Source of the DNA: an uncultured Anaerolineaceae bacterium
GTDB lineage: Bacteria; Chloroflexota; Anaerolineae; Anaerolineales; E44-bin32
NCBI GenBank assembly: GCA_964475265.1
Contig: CAYYVY010000003.1
Coordinates: 1,500-65,499, forward strand
Direction of reading: 5' to 3'
DNA length: 64,000 nt
Below the pieces are notes generated by a model. It ran no database searches. It was not told where the DNA came from and saw only the letters and a list, made by a program, of their open reading frames with translations. A program made the translations under genes and the position numbers. Positions 1-53,749 of the stretch are shown in pieces (position 1 is the first letter of the stretch; each line of letters opens with the position of its first letter).

Positions 1-306
1 TTCGGCAGCCTGGCGTTCGTCGACCTCGGTCACGTCGAACAGGGGCTGTCCTTCGTATTCGGCGTCCTGCAGCAGGCGGATGAAGGTCCGGCCCGCGGCG
101 GAGGATTCAGCGCCGGAAGCTCCGGTGCCTGCGTCGAGGTTCAACACCAGGACGGAAATATATTTGGCCAGACCCTCGCTCGTCGGGCCGAAGGATACGT
201 AATAGAAGCCCACGAGCAGCGCCGGGAAAACCAGCATCAAGGCCACGGTCATGCGCTCGCGCAGCAGTTCGCGCAACGTCTTGCGCATCACGGAGAGCGT
301 TTTCAT
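1..306 (-). CDS. ABC-2-type transporter permease, N-terminal part (runs off the window edge)
   Basis: Absent from the ORF track because it has no stop in the window. Hand translation from the ATG at 306 gives MKTLSVMRKTLRELLRERMTVALMLVFPALLVGFYYV..LVLNLDAG..FIRLLQDAEY..FDVTEVDERQA. This is the basic N-terminus, first TM helix and large loop typical of ABC-2 permeases. Its ATG overlaps the TetR stop (ATGA, 303-306). Confidence 0.55.
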   Translation of the reverse strand, partial: MKTLSVMRKTLRELLRERMTVALMLVFPALLVGFYYVSFGPTSEGLAKYISVLVLNLDAGTGASGAESSAAGRTFIRLLQDAEYEGQPLFDVTEVDERQAAE

Positions 307-1049
307 GCCCCCGCCTCCTGCATGGGCTGCGCCGACCCTTGGTCCCCGATCCCCGCCTGGATGAGATCGAGCAGCGCCTCGACGACACGTTCGAAGGACA
401 CCTTGTCATCACTCACGCGCAGGTAGCGGTTCAGGTAGGGCAGCAGCTGGCTGTCGCCGATGGCGAGCAGGGCGGCGTTGATCAGGCGCGCCGCGGCCTG
501 CAGATCGACGTCCGGACGCACTTCGCCGCGTGCGGCGGCCTGTGCCAGCATCTGCTCCACAAGGGCGAGCATTTTCCCTGCAATCGGTTCCACGCACTGC
601 GGGTAGAAGGATTCATCACCCTGGTAGGCGGCGCGAACGAAGAACTGCACCAGGCCGGCCTGCGTCTGGTTCCATTCCAGCCCGCCCTGCAGATAGGCGG
701 CCAGCGCCTCGCGCAGCGGCAGGGAGACGAGATAGGGTTGGAAGGCGTCGAACATATCCAGCACGTAGCGCGTGCAGATTTCGACCGTGAATGCGAGCAG
801 GTTTTCGCGGTTGCCGAAGTAGTTGTAGAGCGAGCCGACGGCGATGCCGGCGCGGGCGGCGACGTGTTTGACGTTGACCGCCGTCGGCCCGACCTCGCTG
901 GCCTCGTCGAGCACGGCCTGCAAGATCATCTGCTGGCGTCCGGGATCGAGGCGTCGGAAAGTGCGCGTGACCAGCCCGGCCTGCTCCAGGGCCAGGATGT
1001 GCGTGTGGATCGTCGTCCACTCGGGGAATTCGAGCATATCTGAACTCAT
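303..1049 (-). CDS. TetR/AcrR family transcriptional regulator
   Basis: 248-aa ORF. The N-terminal HTH VKHVAARAGIAVGSLYNYFGNRENLL is the TetR_N signature. It is translationally coupled to the downstream ABC-2 permease. Confidence 0.85.
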   Translation of the reverse strand: MSSDMLEFPEWTTIHTHILALEQAGLVTRTFRRLDPGRQQMILQAVLDEASEVGPTAVNVKHVAARAGIAVGSLYNYFGNRENLLAFTVEICTRYVLDMFDAFQPYLVSLPLREALAAYLQGGLEWNQTQAGLVQFFVRAAYQGDESFYPQCVEPIAGKMLALVEQMLAQAAARGEVRPDVDLQAAARLINAALLAIGDSQLLPYLNRYLRVSDDKVSFERVVEALLDLIQAGIGDQGSAQPMQEAGA

Positions 1050-1056
1050 GGTTCAT

Positions 1057-1085
1057 ATTATATAGAATATCGGTTCATAATTCAA
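1057..1085 (-). promoter_or_regulatory. sigma70-like promoter of the TetR gene, geometry implies a leaderless mRNA; overlapping palindrome is a candidate operator
   Basis: The minus strand reads TTGAAT (1085-1080), 17 nt, TATAAT (1062-1057), 7 nt, ATG (1049). There is no Shine-Dalgarno. The imperfect 16-bp palindrome ATATTATATAGAATAT (1055-1070) overlaps the -10. Confidence 0.5.
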
Positions 1086-1153: not shown

Positions 1154-1328
1154 GGTTGCGGATATTCATCCGCAACCGATACCGGGCAGATATCGATCTG
1201 CCAATCTTCGCTTCGTGATGTGATGCCTAAGGGGGAAAAATAATTCGTCCCCCGATTCCCATTATTACGTGAGCACAGGTGGATGAATATCCACCAAATA
1301 CTGGCGCCGGATGCATATCCGGCGCCAG
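1154..1328. repeat. array of five perfect stem-loops in the TetR / ATPase intergenic region
   Basis: H1 1154-1177: GGTTGCGGAT-ATTC-ATCCGCAACC (10 bp). H2 1185-1202: GGCAGAT-ATCG-ATCTGCC (7 bp). H3 1231-1253: GGGGGA-11 nt-TCCCCC (6 bp). H4 1278-1295: GGTGGAT-GAAT-ATCCACC (7 bp). H5 1301-1328: CTGGCGCCGGAT-GCAT-ATCCGGCGCCAG (12 bp). H1, H4 and H5 share a GGAT-N4-ATCC apex. Confidence 0.8.
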
Positions 1329-1552
1329 TAATGTTCTCCTCTTCACCCGTCCCAGCCTTTCACTCATTCCCTTTCAATCATCCTGAGCGGAACGAGATGC
1401 GCAGCATCGAGTGTAGTCGAAGGAAAGGACGCCCGCATCCCGCCTGCGTGACGGCTGTGTCACGCTGAGAACACCCCCATCGTTCGTACAATAACAACGA
1501 AGCTATTCGTGTGCGGGGAGAAGCTGACCAACTCCTCGCAGTCAGGACGTGC

Positions 1553-4480
1553 ATGCTATCCGAGCCCGCGGTCGTTTGTCCGACCTGCAATCTCTCCCAG
1601 ACTCTGGCGCAAGGCGCCAGCCAGGGGATGCGCTGCGGCCGGTGCGGTGCGGAACTTGCGCCGGTCGATGTGCGCTGGATCACCCGAGACGAAAGTGCGG
1701 GTCCGTTTGCGGCCCCATCCGATTTCTCGGCCAGCCAACACTGCGTCGCCGAACTGCTCCTGCCGGCGCACAACGAGGTGGACGAGGAGGCGGTAGGGCA
1801 GTTTTTAAGTTCGCTGCCGCTCCCGTTGGCGCTGGAAATGTACGGCGCGGGGGACCGTCGGGTGATGCTCGTCCGCGGTCGACGAAAAGACCTGCGCTTC
1901 CTGGCGGGGAAGATCCAGACGCTGTGGCCCAGCGCCGTGCTGCGCCTGCTCGACCATGATCCCGTCGGAGCATGCAGCGACACAATGGTGCCCACTATGC
2001 GCTATGATTTTTCATTCCGATTGAAAGCAGCCGGCTACCTGCCGATCCGCACGTGGAAAACATACCTGCAGGGCGATCCGCTGCACTCGCTTCTGGCGGC
2101 CATGCTCGGACTTGAATCCCACGAGCGTATCTGGCTCCAGGTCTTTCTGGCGAGGAAGAGTGAACCGGAATGGTTGGCCAGGATTCAACGCAGGCTCAAA
2201 CTTGAGTTTCAGCGCGGATACGCCATCGATGACGGCGCTGCGATCAGCGCACAGGCCGCCGCTTTTGGGCAGACGCCGCTGCCGCAAAGGATTGCCTGGG
2301 TGAACGGAATCGCATACCTGATACTCCTGCTGTTCGCCTTCGTCATGGCGGTGCTCGCCATCCAGGGGAACTGGTTTTCTTTCACCATTTTTTCCATCCT
2401 GGGCATGTCCCTCGCGGGAGTGCTCTGGCGTTTTCTCGGCCGGCCGGAGGATCCGTGGCACGAAGCCGATCTGTCGCTCGTGCGGCAGAAAGTCGTCCAT
2501 CAGGACAGCTATTATCAGGCTGTGCTGCGGGCCAGTGTCTGGGCGAAATCTCCCGGCGAGGCGCGAAATCTGGCTGAACGACTCGAGGGTGCGATGGCGC
2601 AGTATGCTGTAGCAGGAGGCAACAGCTTCATGATCGCGCCGGATCCCTTTGAGGGTCTGGGCTCATGGCCGCTGCGGCACGTCGTGCCTGACGATACGTG
2701 GATATGGCTTGGCCCGGATGAAATTGCCGGACTTTGGCATCCGCCGATCGTCAATGACCGCATCTCTCCTGGACTGGTTCCGGTGCGGGGAGTGGAGATG
2801 CGTTCACCCGATCCGCAGGATGTTATCGGGTTCTACAAGATTGGAACGTACCTCACGGCAGACGGTGTCAAGAAGGCGGTTCATGTCTCTTCCGCGGCAT
2901 TGAAGCATAACATTTTCTGTATCGGAAAACCGGATGCGGGAAAATCAACGTTGATGCTGCATCTATCCCGAGCGGCGATGGTGGATCAAGATCAGCCGGC
3001 ATTGATCCTGATCGATCCACATGGCGATCTGGTCAATGAATTTCTGGGCACACTCGATCCTGCGGATGTGGATCGAGTTCGGATTTTCGACATCACCGAC
3101 GAGGACTACGCATATACGCTGAATCCACTCGATGTCCATCGAGAGGGATGGGGCGTCATCGAGGTCACGAATTCGATCGTCGACATCGGACAGGCTTTGT
3201 GGACGAGGTATTGGGGTCCGAGAATGCAGATTCCGCTCAAGCGCGGGGTTCAATTGCTCACGGCCGCCAACGAGCTTCGCCCCAAAGACGCATGTTTGGG
3301 ACTATCCCAACTGGCCGCGGTGCTGAATGCGGATGCGGGGGTTCGCCGAAAATTCATTGCTCAGGATTTAGACGGCAGTCCCCACAGGAAAACGCTCGCA
3401 AAATATTTTCTGCATGACTATGAAGACCTCTCACGCAGTTTCCGGGAACAGGTGATTCAACCCGTTCTTTCGAAGGCTCATCGTTTTGAAGAAGAGCCGA
3501 TGCTGCCAATCTTCAGCTGTCCCGAATCGAAATTGAACGTCGGTGAGATTGTGCGCAATCGCAATGTCCTGGTGATTAATACCGGCAAGAACAAGTATGG
3601 ATCTGAAGTGAGTGACTTTGTGGGCTCGTTAATGATCAACATCGTTCTCATGGAATTGATCCGGCAGGGGGAGAAAACATCCCACAACCGTGTGCCGGTT
3701 CTGATCGTGATTGACGAATTTCAGACTTTCACGGGTGTTTGCTGGGAAGACCTCGTACAACAAATGCGCAAATATGGTGGCCGTATGATCCTGGGAACGC
3801 AATCCATGGCCAGTCTTCGAAAACAAAATCCTGAAATCCCTGAAATCATTTTGAGCGGTGTGTATTCCCTTTTTGCTTTCACGATGAACGGAGACGATGC
3901 GGCGTATATTTCGAAAAATGAACTTAGCGGTGAGAAGGGTGGACCCAGTGCCGATACGCTCATCAGCCTCGAACCGCACAAGGCGTACGTGCGTCTTGAA
4001 CGGCAGTCTGGAGGGCTAAGTCGCCCCTTCTATTTTGAAAGCGAACCTCCTCCTGAATACGATCAACTCCTTGCCGATCGCGTCCTCAAATTACGCGCCA
4101 ATTATAGTTTCCCATATCAAGCCGCCATGCAAAATGCACTTGAAATGCTTTCGATTTTCGACGGACACGGACGGGCGATGAGCACGTTGGGGGTCCATGC
4201 GACCCAATCTCAACACCCGGTGTACGCCACTCGATCGCCGGCGTTTGGTGTCGGGTTGTCCGGAAGAGAGATCGATACGCTACGCGATTGTCTAGAGGAT
4301 GTTAAGTTGCCCTGGCAGGCTTGTGCTGGCAGTAGCGGGAATTCTTATATTTCTGACGACTTCCAAAACATGGCGGCAGAAGGAGAAATTGCGGCCGAAG
4401 AATGGAGGGATTTCATAGCGGGGTTTGAAGGACCACTGAAAAACCAGGACGAAATGGGGGAGGAGGCGAATTCATTGTGA
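1553..4480 (+). CDS. membrane-anchored zinc-ribbon / type IV coupling protein-like (VirD4/TraD, FtsK-HerA superfamily) P-loop ATPase
   Basis: ORF 1511-4480; the ATG at 1553 is preferred (AGGA 5 nt upstream). Motifs in order: CxxC-x15-CxxC (nt 1577-1645); two adjacent hydrophobic helices (IAYLILLLFAFVMAVLAI / FSFTIFSILGMSLAGVLW); Walker A GKPDAGKST (2924-2950); LILIDPHGDL; TLNPLD; Walker B VLIVIDEFQTF (from 3698); RKYGGRMILGTQS. This is the motif order of TraD/VirD4-type ATPases. Confidence 0.65.
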   Translation: MLSEPAVVCPTCNLSQTLAQGASQGMRCGRCGAELAPVDVRWITRDESAGPFAAPSDFSASQHCVAELLLPAHNEVDEEAVGQFLSSLPLPLALEMYGAGDRRVMLVRGRRKDLRFLAGKIQTLWPSAVLRLLDHDPVGACSDTMVPTMRYDFSFRLKAAGYLPIRTWKTYLQGDPLHSLLAAMLGLESHERIWLQVFLARKSEPEWLARIQRRLKLEFQRGYAIDDGAAISAQAAAFGQTPLPQRIAWVNGIAYLILLLFAFVMAVLAIQGNWFSFTIFSILGMSLAGVLWRFLGRPEDPWHEADLSLVRQKVVHQDSYYQAVLRASVWAKSPGEARNLAERLEGAMAQYAVAGGNSFMIAPDPFEGLGSWPLRHVVPDDTWIWLGPDEIAGLWHPPIVNDRISPGLVPVRGVEMRSPDPQDVIGFYKIGTYLTADGVKKAVHVSSAALKHNIFCIGKPDAGKSTLMLHLSRAAMVDQDQPALILIDPHGDLVNEFLGTLDPADVDRVRIFDITDEDYAYTLNPLDVHREGWGVIEVTNSIVDIGQALWTRYWGPRMQIPLKRGVQLLTAANELRPKDACLGLSQLAAVLNADAGVRRKFIAQDLDGSPHRKTLAKYFLHDYEDLSRSFREQVIQPVLSKAHRFEEEPMLPIFSCPESKLNVGEIVRNRNVLVINTGKNKYGSEVSDFVGSLMINIVLMELIRQGEKTSHNRVPVLIVIDEFQTFTGVCWEDLVQQMRKYGGRMILGTQSMASLRKQNPEIPEIILSGVYSLFAFTMNGDDAAYISKNELSGEKGGPSADTLISLEPHKAYVRLERQSGGLSRPFYFESEPPPEYDQLLADRVLKLRANYSFPYQAAMQNALEMLSIFDGHGRAMSTLGVHATQSQHPVYATRSPAFGVGLSGREIDTLRDCLEDVKLPWQACAGSSGNSYISDDFQNMAAEGEIAAEEWRDFIAGFEGPLKNQDEMGEEANSL

Positions 4481-4604
4481 TGGTCCAGTATGGTCCGAAT
4501 GTCTACGATGGAATAAATCCGGCAGTCAATCTCAGCAGTATGCGTTTGCCTGAACGATAAACTTAGGCACTTACATTGCGTATTAGAGGAGATTTGGGAA
4601 AACG

Positions 4605-4634
4605 GCACGGCACGCTGATACCGTGCATTTGTTG
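4605..4634 (+). terminator. weak candidate intrinsic terminator after the ATPase gene
   Basis: GCACGG-10 nt-CCGTGC followed by ATTTGTTGG. The stem is short and the U-tract poor. Confidence 0.25.
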
Positions 4635-4696
4635 GAAGTTGATTTTGATGGTAAACGGGACGGTTTCATTCGTCCTGAATGGGGGAGTGAAAAAGA

Positions 4697-4909
4697 ATGG
4701 GCGAGACACAGGAAGGTATGGATGTCGATGATGCTGATCGTCAACCCAAAGAAGAATCTGACGAGCGAGACGAAGTTGTTGACGGGATCATGTGCGGCTT
4801 GGAGGCAGGCGAGGGGGATGTACAGGCGGAGGCGATTTCTTACTTTCATCCCATACCGGATGAAGAGCTGGACGTTTCCGGTCTCGAAGTGCCCGAAAAA
4901 GAGGACTAA
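4697..4909 (+). CDS. hypothetical small, strongly acidic protein (70 aa)
   Basis: GGGGGAG lies 7 nt upstream of the ATG. The product is rich in D/E (MGETQEGMDVDDADRQPKEESDERDEVV...). Overlapping ORFs exist in two other frames, so the coding frame is uncertain. Confidence 0.35.
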   Translation: MGETQEGMDVDDADRQPKEESDERDEVVDGIMCGLEAGEGDVQAEAISYFHPIPDEELDVSGLEVPEKED

Positions 4910-4941
4910 AGCATTTATTGGACTCACAAGGATGACGAAGA

Positions 4942-5163
4942 ATGGACGATCAAGCATCCATCGAACAGGATATTGACTGCGTCGATCGCCTTTGGATAGA
5001 GGATCTTGCGTGGCGAAACGATCATTCCGGTGTTATGGAGTACAAGGGGAGAGCTCAAGAGGGGTTCATCGGCTACATTAATAAAAATCCCTTGCTGGTA
5101 TCAATCCTAACATTCATTATCGGGGGAATTGCTTTTTACATTGTTAGTCTGATTCTTATATGA
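4942..5163 (+). CDS. hypothetical small protein with a C-terminal transmembrane anchor (73 aa)
   Basis: AAGGA lies upstream of the ATG. The C-terminus LLVSILTFIIGGIAFYIVSLILI is one hydrophobic helix. Confidence 0.35.
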   Translation: MDDQASIEQDIDCVDRLWIEDLAWRNDHSGVMEYKGRAQEGFIGYINKNPLLVSILTFIIGGIAFYIVSLILI

Positions 5164-5302
5164 GTAGTGATCATCCATGAGGAACTACTCAAACGTTTAA
5201 TCGAAGAATGAGAATTCTGCATTCGGCGATTGATTTTTGATAAGCGCGATGATTGTGTCTCTTCTTTTGAAGGGGATGTCTCAATCAAAAAAGGAGGGTT
5301 TC

Positions 5303-5575
5303 ATGATGGATCATAATGTTGAAGGGACAACAGAAAAGTTAACGTTGCTCTACATCGGCCTGGGCCTTTCTATACTTGGAATTATCATCATGTTTGCATT
5401 TGGCCCAGGTCTGTCTTTCACGATTGGGTTGATCGCCACGGCTTTTGGTTTTATTTTCTTCGGTGTGGGACTTCGATCTCGAATCATGAGGAAAAATCCC
5501 GCATTAGGCAATCTCGTAGTCGTCGCAACATCGTTGTCCAGTGTCATTTTGATCGCCTGGTATTTACTCTTTTAG
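5303..5575 (+). CDS. hypothetical small integral membrane protein (90 aa, about 3 TM)
   Basis: A strong RBS AAGGAGG (5291-5297) lies 5 nt before the ATG at 5303, which is internal to track ORF 5237-5575. There are three hydrophobic segments. Confidence 0.5.
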   Translation: MMDHNVEGTTEKLTLLYIGLGLSILGIIIMFAFGPGLSFTIGLIATAFGFIFFGVGLRSRIMRKNPALGNLVVVATSLSSVILIAWYLLF

Positions 5576-5699
5576 GGCTTGCGTTCATCCATCACGAACG
5601 CTGCTATTTTGGGGATTAAATCAACTCCTCCTCGAAGGAAACGTATAGGAACTTTTGGGGGACTCAGGGGTTCGACCAAGTCCTGGCTCAGGATGAAAG

Positions 5700-6104
5700 A
5701 TGGGGATACAGGATCAATCCAGGTTGGTTGTCCTATCGGACGATGATGTAATTGCCGATAGTGTCATTTATTGCTGTTCTCGAGATTCGCGGCGCAAGGG
5801 ATTGTTGGGTAGATCTCAACTTGCTGTGAACGAGGGGATTCTGATGGCGATGCCAGTCTACCGCAAAGGGAAAGCGGGCGTCGTCAATTCCATACATATG
5901 CTGGGTATGCACTTTTCTATCGCAGTTGCCTGGCTGAATTTCGACGGAAGGGTTGTTCATTCCAAGCTTGCCAAGAAATGGCATCCTTACTATGGGACTT
6001 CCCATCCGTCTTGGTATATTCTCGAGCTTCACCCCTCAAAGCTTTCGTTGTTATCAGAAGGAACGACCATTCAATGGAAGGTTTGGCTGCCGAACGAACT
6101 CTAA
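5700..6104 (+). CDS. DUF192 (COG1430) family protein
   Basis: KGLLGRSQL..EGILM...SIHMLGMHFSIAVAWLNFDGRVVH...SWYILELHPS matches the remembered DUF192 pattern (GLMgr..gmlf..h.fwM....lDiifld.dG.Vv....a.yvLEl). Confidence 0.55.
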   Translation: MGIQDQSRLVVLSDDDVIADSVIYCCSRDSRRKGLLGRSQLAVNEGILMAMPVYRKGKAGVVNSIHMLGMHFSIAVAWLNFDGRVVHSKLAKKWHPYYGTSHPSWYILELHPSKLSLLSEGTTIQWKVWLPNEL

Positions 6105-6124
6105 ACCGGTTTGTAGGAAGCGAG

Positions 6125-7402
6125 ATGACCGTATCAGATTCCATGAAATTTCCACTTGACCTCGAGGACGTGATGGATTGGGCATTTTGTCCTTTGCGAG
6201 TCTGGTGGAAACGAGGGAAACATGATTCGAAAGTCGCCGATGTCGGAAGCAGCTGTACGGCGGATGGACTTGTGCGCCAGTCGATTCTTGCTGCAATTCG
6301 TTTGTACTACCGAGCTGTACGTAAAAGGGCGGAATTTACATTTGAAGAAAGCCTCGGTTTGATTTGGAGAAAATGGCTCAACGCCTGGAATTTATCCGAC
6401 ATCCTTGCCCGACCTCTGGTGGATTACCAACACCGGCGACGTTCTTTGCTGTGTAGATTCAAAGCGGCGACATTTCCCGGACAGAATGGGGCAGGCTATC
6501 GGAGTCTCATGAGGACACGTCAATGGCGGGAATTGGCTGAATCCCACAGACTTTCAAATCTGCGCAGGTTCATCGACAGTCAAGCGAAGAATACTGGCTT
6601 AGAAGTCATCGGACTTCCCGACAGAGAACATCACGGATCACCGATCGGCCTTGCGGATGCCTATTCGGATTCCGTGGACATGGCGGCTTACATCCGTTTG
6701 CCCGAAGCCAGCAGTGTAATTGGCGTAGGTGTTCCTATGGTGGTCGATTTGCCATCTGTCAGCCTGAACTGCCGAGCAGATATTGTTCGTGAAATCGGAA
6801 GATCGAGAGGCGTTGGGCGGCCCTCAAAGGATCCAAAGCGTACCGGCGGCATTCTAAAACTCGAAACCATTCTCCTAATATTTGACGAAGAATTTCCTTC
6901 TCTTCAGGGTCTGGCCAGGGATTTGCGTATCTTGGCATTTGGTAAGGCACGATTGGATCCCCATAAGCATGCGGAGAGAAATATCGTTGAGCGGGTAAGC
7001 CTCTACCACCTTCCGTCCGGGGAGCATCAGGATTTCACGCCTCGTTTGCATGAAGGGCTTGAGCTATTGGATTCAATCTCAAGTTCGGTGCTTACTGGAA
7101 TGCACCAGTCTGTGTATGTTCCTCGCATGGTATGTGGACGGGAAATATGCGGGGGTTGTGAATACTATGTTCACTGTTTTTCAGCAACGGATGTTATGGA
7201 AGTATTTGCTGCCACGCCTATGGCTCATGTCGATGCAAGCCACCCCGACCTTGATCGATTGATGGCGTTCATGATAGACAACTTTTCCTCCGTAAGCCGT
7301 GTTGATGACTTACGTGCAATTCTGGAATTCATGGTGAAGTCCGGCTCGTCTCCTGAAGGCCTGTTATGGCTGCTAGAGAAGATCGAAGCGGAACGATCAT
7401 GA
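6125..7402 (+). CDS. Cas4/AddB-like PD-(D/E)XK-family nuclease candidate with a 4-Cys (Fe-S type) signature
   Basis: Start chosen at ATG 6125 (AGGAAG 4 nt upstream), after the DUF192 stop. There is a single N-terminal Cys in DWAFCPLRVWW and a C-terminal CGGCEYYVHC = C-X2-C-X5-C (nt 7148-7177). That is the Cys arrangement of Cas4/AddB iron-sulfur nucleases. The D...ExK catalytic motifs are not clearly recognisable (RADIV ... LKLET). Confidence 0.4.
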   Translation: MTVSDSMKFPLDLEDVMDWAFCPLRVWWKRGKHDSKVADVGSSCTADGLVRQSILAAIRLYYRAVRKRAEFTFEESLGLIWRKWLNAWNLSDILARPLVDYQHRRRSLLCRFKAATFPGQNGAGYRSLMRTRQWRELAESHRLSNLRRFIDSQAKNTGLEVIGLPDREHHGSPIGLADAYSDSVDMAAYIRLPEASSVIGVGVPMVVDLPSVSLNCRADIVREIGRSRGVGRPSKDPKRTGGILKLETILLIFDEEFPSLQGLARDLRILAFGKARLDPHKHAERNIVERVSLYHLPSGEHQDFTPRLHEGLELLDSISSSVLTGMHQSVYVPRMVCGREICGGCEYYVHCFSATDVMEVFAATPMAHVDASHPDLDRLMAFMIDNFSSVSRVDDLRAILEFMVKSGSSPEGLLWLLEKIEAERS

Positions 7403-8964
7403 AAGATCTCTTCCGAAGACGCACCGTGCGATCGCGGCGACGATTTTTTCTATACATCGCAGGTATTTTTATCATCGCCATCAGCGGCGCGATTGCGATT
7501 TCGTCATCTTTGTTTCCACTGTATACGCGCGTTGGAAATTGGAGCGATGTCGTCCTACAGATTTTTATCGCTTTTCTTGGTGCCCTGATGGGCATCTTGC
7601 TCATCATCGCCGCACGTCAAGAAACAAAGGCATTAGATCTGTTCGACTGGTTGCAGGAATTGAACTCTCTTCTCGCAGGGTTATCGGCCCCACTCAATGC
7701 CGATAGTATCTATCCAGTCTGTGAAAAAATGTTAAGTGTTTTCACCGAAAACGCAGGTTGGATTCTATTAATTCGAGCTCCCGGCTTGCTAATTCGAGGT
7801 GAAGTAAAAAGGCGCAAGTATCTTCCCATCGTTTCCGCCAATTTAGACAGTGAGTGGAATGTCCATTGGGCTGAGAATTACCTCAAAGACTTGATTGAAA
7901 ACGTCGATGGAGACAAAGATCGTGTCACGGCTAGGGTATTGAAAGTCGCTAGGCAACCGGAGGGCACATGGTCGGCAGATATGGCGGACAAGTCCTTGAT
8001 CGATCAAATTGAAGTTGGCTACCAGCCTGGCGGCGCATCATGGAGACATAGATTGTTCTCAGGACAAAAAGCCGAAGATACTCCTGTGCTCGTATGGACG
8101 TCTAGCGTTAAAACTGGAGATATCTCTACTGGAATGGCGATCGGCCTGGGGGAGAAAAATTCGATCCCGGACACGATGACATTGCAGGCATTGACGACCA
8201 GCCTCGATTTGCTTGTGCAACGCATTGGCAGCATCTTGACAGAAGTAATCCAGCGACGTGAAGGATTGGGCATCGAGAACCTAGGCTTGATCATGCGTGT
8301 ACTTGCTCATGAGACCAACAATGATCTCCAGGGGGCGCTCAACACCATGGACGCCTTCTCCATCCCGGCCACAGAGATTTCAAGTGACCAGCTAATAAAG
8401 CTGCGCGCGATGCTTGCTCGGGCTAGTCATTGGAGTCATCTGATGCGTGAAGCGCCGTTTCTGGTAGATAACGTGCTTCCCGTTGAAAGGGACATCGTCT
8501 CTCTTTCGAATTCGCTTCGTCAGACACTTGACGAGATTCGCCAGGCCTGGCCCGACCTATCATTCGTTCTGAAATTTCCGGATGCCAGTGATACGCTGGA
8601 AGTTGTGGGAGATCAACATATATGCTCGATCATCCGCAACCTGCTGCACAATGCGGCTTCCTTTTCCCCAGAAGAAGGAACCGTGACGGTAAATGTTGTG
8701 GTTGATGACGAGTGCGCGCACGTTTCCGTCCATGATGAGGGCCCGGGAGTGGACCCGGCGGACACCGATAAAATTTTCTCTCCTTTGGCGAGTTACAAGG
8801 AGGGAAGGCGAGCGGGTGTGAGGGCAGATTATGGGATGGGGGTTGGATTGACCATTTCCAGGGCGATAACGCGTGCCTATGGCGGGGACTTACTCTGTTT
8901 CAGCAATACGCAAGAAGGTGGAGGCTGTTTCGAAGTTACCTTTCCCTTGGCGTATGAAGACTAA
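7399..8964 (+). CDS. sensor histidine kinase (2 N-terminal TM helices, no obvious periplasmic domain)
   Basis: The ATG at 7399 overlaps the upstream stop (ATGA). H-box LAHETNNDLQGAL; N-box IIRNLLHNAASFS; G1 HDEGPGVDP; F IFSPL; G2 GMGVGLTISRA. Confidence 0.85.
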   Translation: MKDLFRRRTVRSRRRFFLYIAGIFIIAISGAIAISSSLFPLYTRVGNWSDVVLQIFIAFLGALMGILLIIAARQETKALDLFDWLQELNSLLAGLSAPLNADSIYPVCEKMLSVFTENAGWILLIRAPGLLIRGEVKRRKYLPIVSANLDSEWNVHWAENYLKDLIENVDGDKDRVTARVLKVARQPEGTWSADMADKSLIDQIEVGYQPGGASWRHRLFSGQKAEDTPVLVWTSSVKTGDISTGMAIGLGEKNSIPDTMTLQALTTSLDLLVQRIGSILTEVIQRREGLGIENLGLIMRVLAHETNNDLQGALNTMDAFSIPATEISSDQLIKLRAMLARASHWSHLMREAPFLVDNVLPVERDIVSLSNSLRQTLDEIRQAWPDLSFVLKFPDASDTLEVVGDQHICSIIRNLLHNAASFSPEEGTVTVNVVVDDECAHVSVHDEGPGVDPADTDKIFSPLASYKEGRRAGVRADYGMGVGLTISRAITRAYGGDLLCFSNTQEGGGCFEVTFPLAYED

Positions 8965-8990
8965 CCAGACCAGAATGGAGGACGAAGATT

Positions 8991-9746
8991 GTGGCACAAA
9001 GGGATTACGAAAGGGTTGTCATCGCAGAAGATAATCAAGAGCGTGCTTCCGAGATGATGCAAATTCTCACAGTAATCGGTGGATTTGATGTATCGATTAC
9101 GAAATGGAGAGCCGAAGTAGACAATCTCGTCAGCACGACAAACGCCGGATGGCTTATCCTTGATTTGAACCTTGAAGATGGAAATTCGGCAGAAATCGTG
9201 CCTTTACTTCGGGAACGATATGGGGAAGAACTGATAATCATCATTTTATCTGGATATTATGAAGATTTTCCCGAATGGGATTTGTTGTCCTGCGGAGCGG
9301 ATCTATATCTCAGAAAGCCGTATCGACCAAAGGCAATGCTTCAACAAATGGAAACGCTGCGAGCCCGTATGAGAGGGCAGGCACTGAAACAATCCACCAG
9401 CATCAAGCTCAAGATTGGTGATGGCGTTCTCGATCTGGAACGAGCGATTTATAAAAAGGGAACGATGGAAATTGGTATTCCACACGTTCAGATCAAGTTG
9501 ATCCGACTGCTGGCGTCGGCGCGCGATAATGATGGCTGGAAGTTCGTTGAACGCCCAGAAATCATCATGCATGTATGGGGTGAAGACTTTGAAGTGGACC
9601 CGATCACAACGACGGAGCGGCTGCGGAAATTGAGAAACCGAATCCGGAACACGTTGGGCATGGAGATTACCGACAGCATTCAATCGAGCACGAAGCGACT
9701 TCCCAGATATCGACTGATCTCGGAGATTAAGGTTATCGAGGAATAA
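8991..9746 (+). CDS. OmpR/PhoB-type response regulator (receiver + winged-helix)
   Basis: GTG start with GGAGGA upstream. Receiver residues: IAEDN, ILDLNLEDG, ILSG, LRKPY. The C-terminal region (VQIKLIRLLA...ERLRKLRNRIRNTLG) looks like trans_reg_C. Confidence 0.85.
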   Translation: MAQRDYERVVIAEDNQERASEMMQILTVIGGFDVSITKWRAEVDNLVSTTNAGWLILDLNLEDGNSAEIVPLLRERYGEELIIIILSGYYEDFPEWDLLSCGADLYLRKPYRPKAMLQQMETLRARMRGQALKQSTSIKLKIGDGVLDLERAIYKKGTMEIGIPHVQIKLIRLLASARDNDGWKFVERPEIIMHVWGEDFEVDPITTTERLRKLRNRIRNTLGMEITDSIQSSTKRLPRYRLISEIKVIEE

Positions 9747-9785
9747 AAAAGTGTTTCCGTCAGTATTCGAAAAGGATCGGTAGAC

Positions 9786-10859
9786 GTGCCTAAAACCCCG
9801 CCAGGTTTCCATTTACCTCCTTTTGTCATGGTGCCAGAGGATCTTGAAGAGGTAGCCCTTCACGTCGAAGAGAACCTTGCTGCTGGTCGCGAGGAGATGT
9901 TTTGGCCCATCTCCACAGGATTTGAGCCCATCGATCGATACGCGGGTGGGGGACTCCATGCCGGCGATCTGACGATCGTGGGGGGTGTACAGAACGTCGG
10001 TAAAACAGCGCTCGTGCTTCAATGGGCCAATCACCTCGCCGTCAACGACGCCCTTGCCATTGTCGTTTGTTACGAGCACAACACAATCACGCTTTGGGAA
10101 CGTCTACTCTGTCAGAACTCCTATATTGCCAATCGCGAGGAACACATCACTATGGATTTACTCCGTCAGGCATACATCGAGGCAATTCGAGAGCGTGATC
10201 GGATTCAAGTCAATGCGTCCCACGACAAAATGCATATGCTCGACGAGGTCCTTTCGAGGATACCGAGAGGAACTCGAGCCTGGTCGACTCTGACCGACCG
10301 CATCCGCAACATCTGGTTGGTCATGGGCGATGGCGTGAATACAGATCTCGTCTCATTGCGCCGCTATGTTGAGCTTGCCGTTCAACACTATAATAAACCC
10401 AGGGTTGTGCTCTTTATCGATTACGTACAGCGAGTCCCGGTAATTGATGCCTCAGGCGCGCTCGAGACTGAAGAGCGCATCGAGCGAGTTCTGGCGGGCT
10501 TGAAAGGTCTAGCGATGCGGACGACAGCCCAGGGGGCTGTCTTGTCCGTTGTTGCGGTTGGCGCCGCGGATGATGATGGTCTTCGTAAGGGAAGAGTGCA
10601 TCTCGAGAATCTCTGGGGGAACCCCATCATGCAGTATGAGCCGGACGTTGCGCTGATTGCCAACCGGGATGGTGTCGATACAGATGGTGTTCCGTTGGTG
10701 CGTTGGTCGCTGGAAAAAAACCGGCGAGGTCAGAGCAATATCGAGTTTCGTCATCGCTACCACGGTGCCGCATACTCCTTTGAACCAAACGGTGTAATAA
10801 TTGGCCACAATGAAAGCTGGCAATCTGAGCGTGATGGATGTGAAAACCGATGCGAATGA
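9786..10859 (+). CDS. DnaB-C-terminal-like / KaiC-like RecA-fold ATPase (no DnaB N-terminal domain)
   Basis: FEPIDRYAGGGLHAGDLTIVGGVQNVGKTALVLQWANHLA (Walker A); VCYEHNTITLWERLLCQ; Walker B VVLFIDYVQRV (compare DnaB IDYLQL); ENLWGNPIMQYEPDVALI (compare DLReSG.iEQDAD). The start is uncertain (GTG 9786 or ATG 9828). Confidence 0.6.
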   Translation: MPKTPPGFHLPPFVMVPEDLEEVALHVEENLAAGREEMFWPISTGFEPIDRYAGGGLHAGDLTIVGGVQNVGKTALVLQWANHLAVNDALAIVVCYEHNTITLWERLLCQNSYIANREEHITMDLLRQAYIEAIRERDRIQVNASHDKMHMLDEVLSRIPRGTRAWSTLTDRIRNIWLVMGDGVNTDLVSLRRYVELAVQHYNKPRVVLFIDYVQRVPVIDASGALETEERIERVLAGLKGLAMRTTAQGAVLSVVAVGAADDDGLRKGRVHLENLWGNPIMQYEPDVALIANRDGVDTDGVPLVRWSLEKNRRGQSNIEFRHRYHGAAYSFEPNGVIIGHNESWQSERDGCENRCE

Positions 10860-10947
10860 CAGGCTGCGGGGGAATGAGTGTAATAGAACAGAATAACTTC
10901 GGAGTGTTAAACCTCTTGGATAGAACTCTACTTGGGACCACGATGGC

Positions 10948-11541
10948 ATGAACGCCTTCGTGGCCAGTTTTACGACGGCGCTTTTAATCTGGGCAGCGCG
11001 GCTAGACCTAATGACCAGGAAAATCCCCAGAGGTGCTGGTTTTGGCGTCTTGGCCATCGGTCTCTTCGTTCTGCTGTGGAATCAGCTTTGGATCGAAGCA
11101 TTGTATTACGTTCTCGCGATCTGGTGTACTTCGGGAGGCGTTTGGACGTTGCTGTTAATCCTTGCCTCACTGGCAACTGCATTCGTCCGCGGCGGGGATA
11201 GCATCCCGCTTGTTTTAGGCCTCGTTATTATTTCTGTGTTTTTTTGGATGCATTGGTTCGGTGGTGGGGATGCGCAGCTCGCCATCGGACTTATTGGGAT
11301 CGGCCACGATTGGGCCATTCTTGCTTTTCTGGTTGGAGCAACAATTATCTCGATGATTTTTCTTGTTTTCCGAAGACATGGAGTGACAGAAGGTCTCAAG
11401 CGGCTGCACCAGGTTTTTCGTAATCTCGCCGCAAAACCGGACGCACATGCGATCCGTACACCTTGGGCGGTGATTGCTATGATTGCGGGCATCTTGTATC
11501 TTTGGTTGTGGCCTTTGTTCATCGGAGGCAGCTCGGTATGA
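10948..11541 (+). CDS. A24-family prepilin peptidase (CpaA/TadV type, peptidase domain only)
   Basis: Polytopic membrane protein with the two catalytic Asp contexts AARLDLMTRKIP and FGGGDAQLAIGLIG. Confidence 0.75.
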   Translation: MNAFVASFTTALLIWAARLDLMTRKIPRGAGFGVLAIGLFVLLWNQLWIEALYYVLAIWCTSGGVWTLLLILASLATAFVRGGDSIPLVLGLVIISVFFWMHWFGGGDAQLAIGLIGIGHDWAILAFLVGATIISMIFLVFRRHGVTEGLKRLHQVFRNLAAKPDAHAIRTPWAVIAMIAGILYLWLWPLFIGGSSV

Positions 11542-12014
11542 GAAAAATCGTATTGGTTGCCGGCATAGTTGCGATGATCGTCGCAGGATGTTCCATCTTC
11601 GGAAAAGGAACAGACGAGGGCGTACCAGAGGAAAATGTCGCGGCCGGTGACGGAACTCCGCGTGTGATCAGCGGCCAGGAAGCGCTGCAGCTCTACGGCG
11701 TCGCAACGGAAGATCCGGTTTCGATAAAACCGACGAGCACGCCGCTCTATTACTTCCCGGCGCGCGCCTGGGTCCTGCCCAACGAGATTCCCTACGATCC
11801 GCAGGAGACGATCACCATCCTGCCCATGTTCACCCGTCCGGCGTTGAACGACGGCGGCACCTGGCTGGGGGACCTGGAAGCGGGCGCCGAAGTCGTGCTG
11901 CAGGGAGTCAACGCCGACCGCACGGCCTGCCTGGTCGAAGGGCTTACGCTGCAAGGCTGGAGCACCATGGGCTGGGTGGCCTGCAACCGGCTGAGTTTCT
12001 ACGAGGTGGATTGA
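11538..12014 (+). CDS. lipoprotein with C-terminal SH3b-like domain
   Basis: The ATG at 11538 overlaps the peptidase stop (ATGA). Signal and lipobox MRKIVLVAGIVAMIVAGC. The C-terminus LEAGAEVVLQGVNADRTACLVEGLTLQGWSTMGWVACNRL is SH3_3-like. Confidence 0.5.
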   Translation: MRKIVLVAGIVAMIVAGCSIFGKGTDEGVPEENVAAGDGTPRVISGQEALQLYGVATEDPVSIKPTSTPLYYFPARAWVLPNEIPYDPQETITILPMFTRPALNDGGTWLGDLEAGAEVVLQGVNADRTACLVEGLTLQGWSTMGWVACNRLSFYEVD

Positions 12015-12416
12015 GTATCCCTCGATAATGTATTGCACGGCATTTCCGGATTGTCGGGGCTTTTTCTTTGGTTGAAATGCATCCTGATCAAGCAAGATTT
12101 TGGCGAGAGGGGGAAAACCTGATCTTGTCGTAATTACCAGAAATCCAGCAATGAAGTGTATTAATTCCCCGAACGGTAACTGCAGATACAATTTAGACCC
12201 TGTATGTAAACGAGCGTTGTTTCTTCCAATATCAAGATAGCTCAGCAGAATCGCTTGAATATGCGCTCTTCAAAGTGTATGCTATGCCAAGATGCAGCCA
12301 GAACACAACAGAGGGCACATGATCTTATTCGGAAATCGGATTTTCTTGATCGCGCCCTTTTAGATTCAATGCGGAGATTTAGAGTACTTCTGTAGCAACA
12401 TTCAGGGAGGTCGACT

Positions 12417-13043
12417 ATGGGTTACTCCTACCGGTCACGCCAGGAAAATAGAAAGACCATGCTGATGATAGGCCTTGGGTTTGGTGTGCCGGCCTTTTTG
12501 TTGATCATGTACCTCTTCGTGTCTCAATTGCCGATGTCCTCCAAACAGCTGGCTCGTAAGTACGGCGATGAGGTGTATCTATGCCAGGACGTAATCGGGC
12601 TGCAGCCCATGCCGTTATCGGAGAAGAAGCCGGTGGATGAGATTCGGCGCATCGTCTTTGTCGAAGCGGATCTCGACACGAATGCTCTGACCCTGCACGA
12701 TTGGCAGCAACAGCTGCCTCCAGAGTGGGCTGCCAACGGAGAAGATGAAGTCGACGCAATCGTTTGCCTTCGTTTTGCCTATATGACTGTCGGAGAATGT
12801 TCCTACAGCGTAGGTCTCGGTACGGATGTGGTTCAGCGGCAACGCCAGAGACTCGAGATCACGATTATTGATGCGGAATCGGAGAAGTCAATCCGCTATG
12901 ATCAGATAAATGGGGCTGACCCGGGACCGTGCCCGGATACAATGCCCTCCATAGGTGGATCGGTTCCCAATATACAAGGCCCGGACATTTCGTATGAAGA
13001 AGTCGTATCCGAAATTATGCGATACATCGTCCCGGTCGATTGA
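12417..13043 (+). CDS. hypothetical N-terminally membrane-anchored protein
   Basis: 208-aa ORF with GGGAGG upstream and one TM helix (MLMIGLGFGVPAFLLIMYLFV). No family recognised. Confidence 0.5.
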   Translation: MGYSYRSRQENRKTMLMIGLGFGVPAFLLIMYLFVSQLPMSSKQLARKYGDEVYLCQDVIGLQPMPLSEKKPVDEIRRIVFVEADLDTNALTLHDWQQQLPPEWAANGEDEVDAIVCLRFAYMTVGECSYSVGLGTDVVQRQRQRLEITIIDAESEKSIRYDQINGADPGPCPDTMPSIGGSVPNIQGPDISYEEVVSEIMRYIVPVD

Positions 13044-13283
13044 TATACTCAATTGCTGCAGAGCACCAGCATGAACCTGGGTTTTGGATGGCGTAACTGG
13101 AACCGACATGAATGGGTTGATTCACAGTGCGGGTTGGGGATTTGACTTCTGCGCATTCATTTCGTAGTATTACGGTGTAAATCGTCGTATTTGCGCTGTG
13201 ACAGTCCACACTTGGGGAACGCCGTCGAAGCTGGTAGATTCAGGATTATAATCGTGAGTGGGACGAGCGAACGGAGGTCGAAC

Positions 13284-53548: not shown

Positions 53549-53749
53549 TCACTGATCCGTGGATGGATCTACATCCGTGCTTTCGATTTCTGCAGGCGTG
53601 TCGCTTCCCGATTCTCGGAATCGTCGCTTCAACCTCGCCCAAAACATGCGAATCTTGCTTGAAAACACCAGAACCATCCCAGATATCGCCGCAAAGAGAA
53701 TCGCTAAGAGTTGAAAAATCTGGCCTCCGGTGTTCGGATCAATATACAT
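53549..53749 (-). CDS. hypothetical small membrane protein (66 aa)
   Basis: MYIDPNTGGQIFQLLAILFAAISGMVLVF (one TM helix) followed by a basic then acidic tail. It sits directly upstream of the AlkP-family gene. Confidence 0.4.
   Translation of the reverse strand: MYIDPNTGGQIFQLLAILFAAISGMVLVFSSKIRMFWARLKRRFRESGSDTPAEIESTDVDPSTDQ

Follow-up and report, generated by a model that had tools for sequence, protein, structure and literature searches.

A mirror-image cluster of palindromes with a proposed REPIN-like architecture between a TetR-family regulator gene and a T4CP-like ATPase gene in an Anaerolineaceae bacterium

Repetitive extragenic palindromes (REPs) carry a tag, the tetranucleotide GTAG or CGTC, at one end of the palindrome, and in T. 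roseum, a member of the Chloroflexi, they are clustered in blocks at few loci (PMC3733652). Two REP units that stand in inverted orientation and are separated by a spacer make up a REPIN, in which compensatory changes are common (PMC3116915). Inverted repeats are also known as protein-binding sites, as for the efflux repressor TNfxB3, which binds two 24-bp inverted repeats (PMC11077950), while the FtsK-type motor TraB of Streptomyces reads 8-bp direct repeats of clt, the TraB recognition sequences (TRS), by means of a C-terminal helix-turn-helix (HTH) domain (PMC5365140). In addition, work on RNA genes has established that template switching can create and repair perfect stems and introduce multi-base compensatory changes in single events (PMC8794818). 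Here, we compare with these systems a cluster of hairpin-forming palindromes at positions 1154-1330 of a 64,000-nucleotide stretch of DNA from an uncultured Anaerolineaceae bacterium (contig CAYYVY010000003.1), which is referred to as the window in the following. As an earlier note on this sequence had stated, the cluster is located between the promoter of a TetR/AcrR-family regulator gene and a gene for an ATPase that resembles type IV coupling proteins (T4CP). We tentatively read it, with somewhat less than even confidence, as a REPIN-like element of palindromic DNA that is bound to its locus and need not accompany the ATPase.

The cluster consists of four palindromes with 4-nt loops that flank a weaker one in their middle. 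H1 (1154-1163/1168-1177) is a perfect 10-bp palindrome, GGTTGCGGAT-ATTC-ATCCGCAACC, and is followed by H2 (1185-1191/1196-1202), a perfect 7-bp palindrome with the sequence GGCAGAT-ATCG-ATCTGCC. The central palindrome H3 (1231-1236/1248-1253; GGGGGA-N11-TCCCCC) has a 6-bp stem and an 11-nt loop. Downstream of it, H4 (1278-1284/1289-1295) is again a perfect 7-bp palindrome, GGTGGAT-GAAT-ATCCACC, and H5 (1299-1312/1317-1330) a perfect one of 14 bp, TACTGGCGCCGGAT-GCAT-ATCCGGCGCCAGTA. All five hairpins had been listed in the earlier note, and their stem lengths stand with the exception of H5, for which 12 bp had been given; since the stem comprises 14 bp, the end of the feature moves from 1328 to 1330. 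The apex GGAT-N4-ATCC described for H1, H4, and H5 was confirmed, and we found that H2, which had been overlooked in this respect, carries the one-off variant AGAT-N4-ATCT. The motif RGAT-N4-ATCY is common to all four short-loop units. A sixth, weaker hairpin, H0 (1095-1101/1114-1120; TTGGGTT-N12-AACCCAA; z = -2.1 as a DNA hairpin), had likewise escaped notice and lies just upstream of H1. The REP-type tag GTAG stands before H0 in four related loci (L007, L011, L012, and L022), and GCAG takes its place in the window.

The units are organised in mirror image, which is newly recognised here. A covariance model of H4 and H5 (R1) aligned from end to end with 1149-1205 of the minus strand (46 bits, E 8e-10), and so did a model of H1 and H2 (R2) with 1275-1331 of the same strand (41 bits, E 3.6e-12). 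Reciprocal opposite-strand matches of the two models were obtained in L007, L008, L011, and L023 as well. Because R1 and R2 match each other on opposite strands, H2 corresponds to H4 and H1 to H5, and the cluster consists of two inverted copies of one two-palindrome module, in which H1 and H5 are the outer units of the left and the right module, respectively, and H2 and H4 the inner ones. The mirror axis is at ~1240, the hairpin centres being placed at 1165.5/1314.5 for H1/H5 and at 1193.5/1286.5 for H2/H4, and H3 is centred on 1242. The centres of H1 and H2 are 28 bp apart, and this 28-bp spacing is free of indels within each pair among the orthologues; the spacer between the two modules (1206-1274) measures ~69 bp.

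Base-by-base reading of the paralogous units revealed blocks of compensatory differences, namely GG-TTG-CGGAT/ATCCG-CAA-CC in H1 vs GG-CGC-CGGAT/ATCCG-GCG-CC in H5, and GG-CA-GAT/ATC-TG-CC in H2 vs GG-TG-GAT/ATC-CA-CC in H4. The paralogues thus differ symmetrically, by compensation, which shows that the ability to fold back has been kept and not the sequence of the stem. A given unit resembles its orthologues much more closely than its paralogue in the same genome. This indicates that the duplication predates these lineages and that no concerted evolution has taken place.

The hairpin cluster is real and non-random. There are four GGATNNNNATCC sites in the 64 kb, compared to 1.77 expected, and three of the four fall within these 175 bp. 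The fourth site, at 53565-53576 (GGATCTACATCC), is not part of a longer palindrome. A cluster of four hairpins of at least 7 bp within 180 bp occurred once over 60 dinucleotide shuffles of the whole window, and a 14-bp stem in none of them. The predicted fold of the 201-nt region reaches -89 kcal/mol on the + strand, with z = -7.6 on this strand and -5.9 on the - strand, and none of 200 shuffles folded as well. Examined as single DNA hairpins, H1 (-12.1 kcal/mol, z = -7.4), H2, H4, and H5 (-19.0 kcal/mol, z = -8.7) each outdid all 200 shuffles. H3 alone does not exceed chance (z = -1.2, matched by 20/200 shuffles) and is poorly conserved among orthologues.

In order to follow the cluster in related genomes, orthologous spacers were gathered via the ATPase, the TetR protein, and a promoter-anchored DNA pattern; the ATPase homologues come from Anaerolineales metagenome-assembled genomes, and percentages in the following give the identity of the ATPase. 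In L007 (74%), H0, H1, H2, H4, and H5 are retained in the same order and with the same 28-bp spacings, and L008 (74%) is like it, its contig beginning within H1. The same five hairpins are retained in L023-L026, in which the ATPase gene breaks off after about 87 codons. In L023-L024, the ATPase diverges at this point into unrelated AT-rich sequence, about 500-760 nt upstream of TetR, and the hairpin cluster is intact. L011, whose contig ends in the ATPase gene, retains H0, H2, and H4, while the apex of H1 is degraded and H5 is broken by an insertion. Regarding the outer units, H1 is conserved in L007, L008, and L023, with loss of the RGAT-N4-ATCY core at its apex in L011 and L023, and the H5 stem measures 10 bp in L023, 6+1+3 in L007/L008, and 6 bp in L003, and is disrupted in L011.

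Closer relatives have a reduced cluster or none although the ATPase is retained. Just a hybrid-looking H4' and a 6-bp H5' are left in L002, L003, and L021 (78-79% in L002 and L003), and in L001/L004 (79%) the spacer is occupied by a 674-aa gene and hairpins are absent. Where the ATPase stands beside a different gene (L012/L013), two copies of H0, a remnant of H1, and CCTGAGCGG units were found, and none of H2-H5. L022, in which the ATPase does not adjoin TetR, has one inverted unit and H0, and in L027 H0 comes after an H1-like unit. No hairpins are present in L006 (60%) and L009/L010 (67%). Overall, the cluster has stayed in place within a sub-clade, namely in four other Anaerolineales lineages, and was lost several times, always with the ATPase kept. 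Absence or lack of conservation at orthologous loci, which the earlier note had named as an argument against its proposals, is therefore only half of the picture, as the cluster is kept in those four lineages and lost or reduced in several others.

Where the cluster is present, its stems are somewhat better kept than neutral sites, while the loops vary freely. In pairwise comparisons of the five cluster-bearing lineages, the stems of H1, H2, H4, and H5 reach an identity of 0.80 (0.90 for H1 and 0.83 for H2), their loops one of 0.64, and the spacers one of 0.50; four-fold degenerate sites of TetR in the same lineages are 0.68-0.78 identical, mostly 0.70-0.75. The earlier note had suggested examining orthologous spacers for covariation. 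Such covariation is weak overall, with clear compensatory pairs among orthologues in H4 only (U-A to C-G and G-C to U-A), plus one at the base of H5. When the six-hairpin structure derived from the window was imposed on seven orthologous sequences, 84.0% of the cells were paired, a proportion reached by 22/500 shuffles, compared to 82.5% after shuffling. Departures from strict pairing are of two types. G.T pairs on the + strand occur twice in H1 of L007 and once in H2 of L011, and A.C mismatches, which allow a wobble only on the other strand, are found in H4 of L007 and in H5 of both L007 and L008. The two types are about equally common, and neither strand is favoured by the wobble pairs.

The TetR/AcrR-family regulator gene (303..1037, - strand) is the first gene of an ABC-2 efflux operon, and the ATPase gene (1553..4480, + strand) encodes a protein of 975 aa with an N-terminal zinc ribbon, two transmembrane segments, and TrwB_AAD_bind/TraG-D_C domains. 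The predicted TetR promoter, TTGAAT-17-TATAAT (1057..1085, - strand), is found in the same form in L007, L011, and L023 and is the only promoter predicted in every lineage; it is directed to TetR, away from the cluster, and the hairpins lie upstream of its -35 element. On the other side, a probable ATPase promoter region (1446..1492, + strand) is situated downstream of the hairpins and comprises GCGTGAC-N6-GTCACGC at 1446-1465 followed by TACAAT at 1487-1492. Every ATPase locus has retained this block, L009 and L012 among them. The somewhat longer segment 1427-1492 is nearly invariant in every ATPase orthologue, even with other neighbours (L009, L012), contains in addition a GGACG-N4-CGTCC-like dyad, and is probably a promoter plus a regulator site. 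Just 5' of the ribosome-binding site, a leader hairpin (1513-1539) covaries, being GCGGGGAG/CTCCTCGC in the window vs GAAGGGAG/CTCCCTTC in L007, L008, and L011. Together with the TACAAT block, it marks the probable ATPase promoter and a short 5' untranslated region (UTR). On the opposite strand, the leader hairpin has a terminator-like score in L011 and L023.

H1-H5 keep a distance of 70-245 bp from the TetR -35 element and of >130 bp from the ATPase -10 element, on the upstream side in both cases. Since H0-H5 lie upstream of both predicted promoters, the spacer is covered by neither predicted transcript; the promoter calls were made with a consensus scan, and it is from them that the spacer appears to be untranscribed.

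The remainder of the spacer is a mosaic of locus-specific repeats that differ in copy number and orientation, among them H0 with its GTAG tag and the CCTGAGCGG units. One locus-specific repeat of ~46 nt, CATCCTGAGCGG...GTCGAAGGA, lies at 1379..1425 on the + strand of the window and is present in 0.5-3 tandem copies in the orthologues, with inverted copies in L001 and L022. The unit, also delimited as CATCCTGAGCGGAACGAGATGC...GTCGAAGGA, contains a small covarying hairpin of its own and is found at 1379-1425 in the window, at 140-290 in L011, at 3080-3190 in L012, at 9786-9890 in L001, and upstream of TetR in L022. No copies of it were detected elsewhere in the window or in other loci.

These observations lead us to favour, as a tentative account, a locus-bound element of REPIN-like build. 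An ancestral module might have consisted of a 7-bp and a 10-bp palindrome with centres 28 bp apart, both with an RGAT-N4-ATCY apex, and would have been duplicated in inverted orientation about a central palindrome to give the order H1-H2, H3, H4-H5. The trait preserved since then would be the fold-back of each unit into a hairpin or cruciform and not the sequence of its stem. This fold-back might be maintained by selection for the fold itself or by arm-to-arm correction via template switching during replication. Like the hairpins attributed to template switching, those of the cluster have perfect stems and multi-base compensatory differences between related hairpins; such events were described for RNA genes, and template switching is a putative mechanism here, where the comparison covers 5-7 sequences.

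The location in an apparently untranscribed spacer between the TetR-efflux and the ATPase promoters suggests that the element acts, if at all, as DNA, where it may serve as a cruciform-prone spacer or as the target of a structure- or dyad-specific protein. That it is a DNA element rather than an RNA is further suggested by the lack of a strand bias, by A/U-rich, non-canonical loops, and by the lack of an Rfam match. The element would be inherited vertically, would decay or be deleted in several lineages, and would be dispensable for the ATPase operon. The ATPase is kept despite loss of the cluster in L001/L004, L002/L003/L021, L012/L013, L006, and L009, which is consistent with the cluster having no specific role for the ATPase.

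Of the options listed in the earlier note, a REP-like cluster comes closest in architecture, as an inverted doublet of palindromic units. Like REPs and REPINs, the cluster is built of short palindromes (18-32 bp here) with short loops that are present in two inverted copies, separated here by about 70 bp, in which compensatory changes keep the pairing. Also like them, it stands among other small repeats in a mosaic intergenic region, and its presence varies among relatives.

The likeness to REPINs is nevertheless incomplete, and a number of findings weigh against the reading given above. No further copies of the units were detected in the 64-kb window by BLAST, by a hairpin scan, or by covariance models with filters off, and none in 131 kb of related loci by covariance models. 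The cluster is known from a single locus, without dispersed copies in about 195 kb of DNA (the window and the related loci). Each arm contains two hairpins here, whereas a REPIN arm contains one. Moreover, the arms of a REPIN are nearly identical and form one long hairpin; those of the cluster are ~61% identical (33/54 positions in a manual base-by-base comparison, the differences being mostly compensatory blocks), and both the minimum-energy and the centroid fold contain local hairpins only, the arms not pairing with each other. Neither a GTAG nor a CGTC tag flanks H1, H2, H4, or H5, a crude HUH...Y motif search of all open reading frames (ORFs) of at least 90 aa revealed no ORF in the window that resembles a RAYT, the cognate Y1/HUH transposase of REPs, and the location between divergent genes is the rarest context of REPs. 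The covariation score of the orthologues is 0.093, compared to 0.077 after shuffling, and was reached by 47/500 shuffles, which is statistically weak. In addition, the stems are more conserved than loops, spacers, and four-fold degenerate sites, which suggests purifying selection on the sequence and hence a specific function. The occurrence of RGAT-N4-ATCY in all four good units, together with the indel-free 28-bp spacings, resembles a set of sites for one protein. The cluster is not a demonstrated member of a REPIN family.

The alternative that survives best, although we regard it as unlikely, is an operator array in which H1, H2, H4, and H5 would be the sites of one dimeric protein reading RGAT-N4-ATCY. 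The mirror order would let both divergent promoters see the same order of sites, and candidates for the binding protein are the adjacent TetR/AcrR regulator, the OmpR-type response regulator of the low-GC island described below, and an unknown factor. Such an array would account for a core common to four units around a variable central 4 bp, for a conservation of the stems above that of loops and spacers, for the indel-free 28-bp spacing in each pair, and for the location between divergent promoters. It also fits the finding that the full cluster is present only where the TetR and ATPase genes directly adjoin. The operators of AcrR and QacR have 10-14-bp arms around a 4-bp centre. The cluster likewise has 7-14-bp arms and a 4-bp centre and, as in TetR/AcrR efflux systems, places several dyads in a divergent spacer beside a TetR-family gene and an efflux operon. 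For local efflux repressors, binding to paired 24-bp inverted repeats between divergent genes has been described (PMC11077950).

The operator option of the earlier note is, however, weakened by the compensatory changes, which keep the dyad symmetry outside the shared core: the symmetry exceeds what is common to the units as a recognition core, and binding of a dimer does not predict this. Moreover, the dyads overlap neither promoter, in contrast to operators of the TetR family, which overlap the promoter or leader of the gene that they regulate; they are situated about 80 bp or more upstream of the TetR -35 element, and their distance to the ATPase promoter varies with the number of units. L011 and L023 have lost the apex of H1, and OmpR-type regulators usually bind direct repeats. 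A separate and better-placed palindrome is the dyad TGAAC-N5-GTTCA (1041..1055). It falls within the interval from the -10 element of the TetR promoter to the start codon, where it overlaps the leader of TetR, and has been retained by TetR loci that have hairpins as well as by those that have none. This dyad is likely a better candidate for the TetR operator than H1-H5. Beside it, within 1041-1079, we observed a direct repeat, GGTTCATA, at 1050 and 1072.

A structured RNA appears improbable. The hairpins would then belong to a long 5' leader of the ATPase operon, transcribed from a promoter that overlaps the TetR operator, or to a small RNA, and would serve stability, processing, or protein binding as RNA. 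The very stable predicted fold of the + strand would be in line with such a transcript, as would the compensatory pairs among orthologues and between paralogues, the three G.U-type pairs of the + strand in L007 and L011, and a weak promoter-like site on the + strand of the window, TTCATA-18-CATAAT at 1052-1081. This site is not predicted in L007, L011, and L023, and the TACAAT block and the covarying leader hairpin downstream of the cluster mark a separate, short 5' UTR. Furthermore, A.C mismatches are about as common as G.T pairs, the loops are A/U-rich with none of the GNRA or UNCG type, no terminator accompanies the hairpins, and covariation among orthologues, as described above, is weak. 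A search of 900-1700 against Rfam 15 yielded nothing beyond three chance-level matches, two of them to miRNA families and one to a CRISPR repeat (E 3.6-6.9). The structured 5' RNA proposed in the earlier note has thus lost ground, being outside the predicted transcripts and without a favoured strand.

It is doubtful that the locus is one cluster of an active, dispersed family of REPs, REPINs, or miniature inverted-repeat transposable elements (MITEs) moved by a RAYT or an IS200-like transposase. The inverted doublet with its ~69-bp spacer, the mosaic company that includes H0 with a GTAG tag, and the differing presence among relatives would be expected of such a family, and REP families can be small or limited to few blocks (PMC3733652). 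On the other hand, neither the 64-kb window nor the 131 kb of related DNA yielded another copy, which is also where the REP-like option of the earlier note falls short. Every unit in every genome is orthologous to a unit of the window, without new insertions and without concerted evolution, H1-H5 lack the GTAG or CGTC tag, and no RAYT-like ORF was seen in the window. Neither a clean target-site duplication nor an empty site was found. Mobile-element ends were considered separately and rejected, as there is no target-site duplication and the apparent empty site of L012/L013 is a deletion derivative with a remnant of H1.

The ATPase gene opens a low-GC stretch of about 11.5 kb (~1500-13050), in which the GC content is 0.45-0.53 compared to 0.60-0.65 in the flanks. 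Besides the ATPase, this island encodes three small acidic or membrane proteins, a DUF192 protein, a Cys-rich protein of 425 aa, a histidine kinase, a weakly OmpR-like response regulator (8991-9746), and a DnaB_C/RecA-like ATPase; a 197-aa protein shows a faint prepilin-peptidase match (E 0.017). The core common to the island of the window and to L009 comprises the ATPase and proteins of 70 aa and 73 aa, and a Replic_Relax protein follows the ATPase in L009. The 425-aa protein (6125-7402, with the ORF called from 5978) has conserved motifs, DWA(F/Y)CPLRVWW in its N-terminal and CGxCEYxxHC in its C-terminal part, which are reminiscent by eye of Cas4/AddB-type iron-sulfur nucleases; no match to it was obtained in Pfam, NCBIfam, PADLOC, or PDB sequences. 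Its gene occurs solely in three loci in which the full cluster is found too, namely the window, L007, and L008, and is absent from L001 and L002; the other island proteins of the window are closer to those of L001/L002 than to those of L007/L008. As this co-occurrence amounts to approximately one evolutionary event, we regard it as a lead and not as evidence.

A cis-acting site of the island, in the sense of an origin of transfer (oriT) or a clt-like loading or nicking site for the T4CP-like ATPase, or of a substrate of the 425-aa protein, is very unlikely and is the least supported option of the earlier note. Clusters of inverted repeats are typical of oriT regions, and the cluster is a repeat-rich non-coding region that adjoins a DNA-translocase-like gene; the Replic_Relax protein behind the ATPase in L009 and the restriction of the 425-aa gene to loci with the full cluster would also be compatible with such a site. 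However, L009 has no hairpins, and no relaxase was found in the window, where a tblastn search with the Replic_Relax protein of L009 was empty and Pfam, NCBIfam, and PADLOC scans of the island proteins showed none; nor is a nic site identifiable. The cluster is not conserved together with the ATPase, orthologues of which do without it at 60-79% identity; it is absent upstream of the ATPase in L001/L004, L006, L009, L012, and L013 and reduced in L002 and L003, and L023 retains the cluster despite its truncated ATPase gene. In contrast to the motor that reads clt, the ATPase is T4CP-like (TrwB_AAD_bind and TraG-D_C only), with no FtsK gamma or HTH domain found in it and no recognisable sequence-reading C-terminal domain, and the repeats are palindromes and not 8-bp direct repeats. 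Plasmid and phage records gave no match to the region, and the co-occurrence with the 425-aa gene counts as about one event. Least probable of all is that the mirrored array is a cis-acting DNA structure used for loading, nicking, or recognition by the ATPase and the 425-aa protein together, which, if true, would point to an undescribed DNA-export or DNA-processing system of the Anaerolineae in which extruded hairpins would define the start instead of a relaxase-nic pair.

Several other identities were rejected. With their GC-rich stems and 4-nt loops, the hairpins resemble intrinsic terminators, but, as the earlier note had already maintained, they are none: not one of the stems is followed by a T-tract, a scan of 900-1700 revealed no terminator-like site, and the cluster lies between divergent promoters, with the flanking genes diverging from it, and not at the end of a gene. 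The same note had dismissed the 61-aa ORF at 1283-1468 as spurious, and we agree, since it has no relative among 5.8 billion proteins and its ATG start codon is lost in the orthologues. A replication origin was discarded because DnaA boxes (TTATCCACA with at most one mismatch) are not enriched and are absent from the region. An origin from a plasmid or phage found no blastn match; seven viral contigs match CCGGAT-N4-ATCCGGCGCCA, and as their flanks are unlike the cluster, these were judged to be chance matches. An invertible segment bounded by the exact 12-nt inverted repeat 1160-1171/1281-1292 was excluded, the complementarity of the loops not being kept in the orthologues. No recombinase was noticed near the locus in Pfam, NCBIfam, and PADLOC scans, which covered selected ORFs of the first ~19 kb. 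Boundary repeats of the low-GC island are likewise not involved, as nothing similar is present at its other edge.

Overall, our results are most consistent with palindromic DNA bound to its locus. If this reading is correct, the cluster would represent a REPIN-like element that became fixed at one locus and was inherited vertically, with fold-back outliving sequence, in a phylum (Chloroflexi/Anaerolineae) from which such elements have barely been described. We claim no broad significance for it at this stage. It would nonetheless provide a case study of the persistence of perfect palindromes and a warning against reading hairpin clusters beside translocase genes as transfer origins. Should a specific protein or the neighbouring island make use of the cluster, it may offer a way into a T4CP-like operon that is uncharacterised although conserved across the Anaerolineales.

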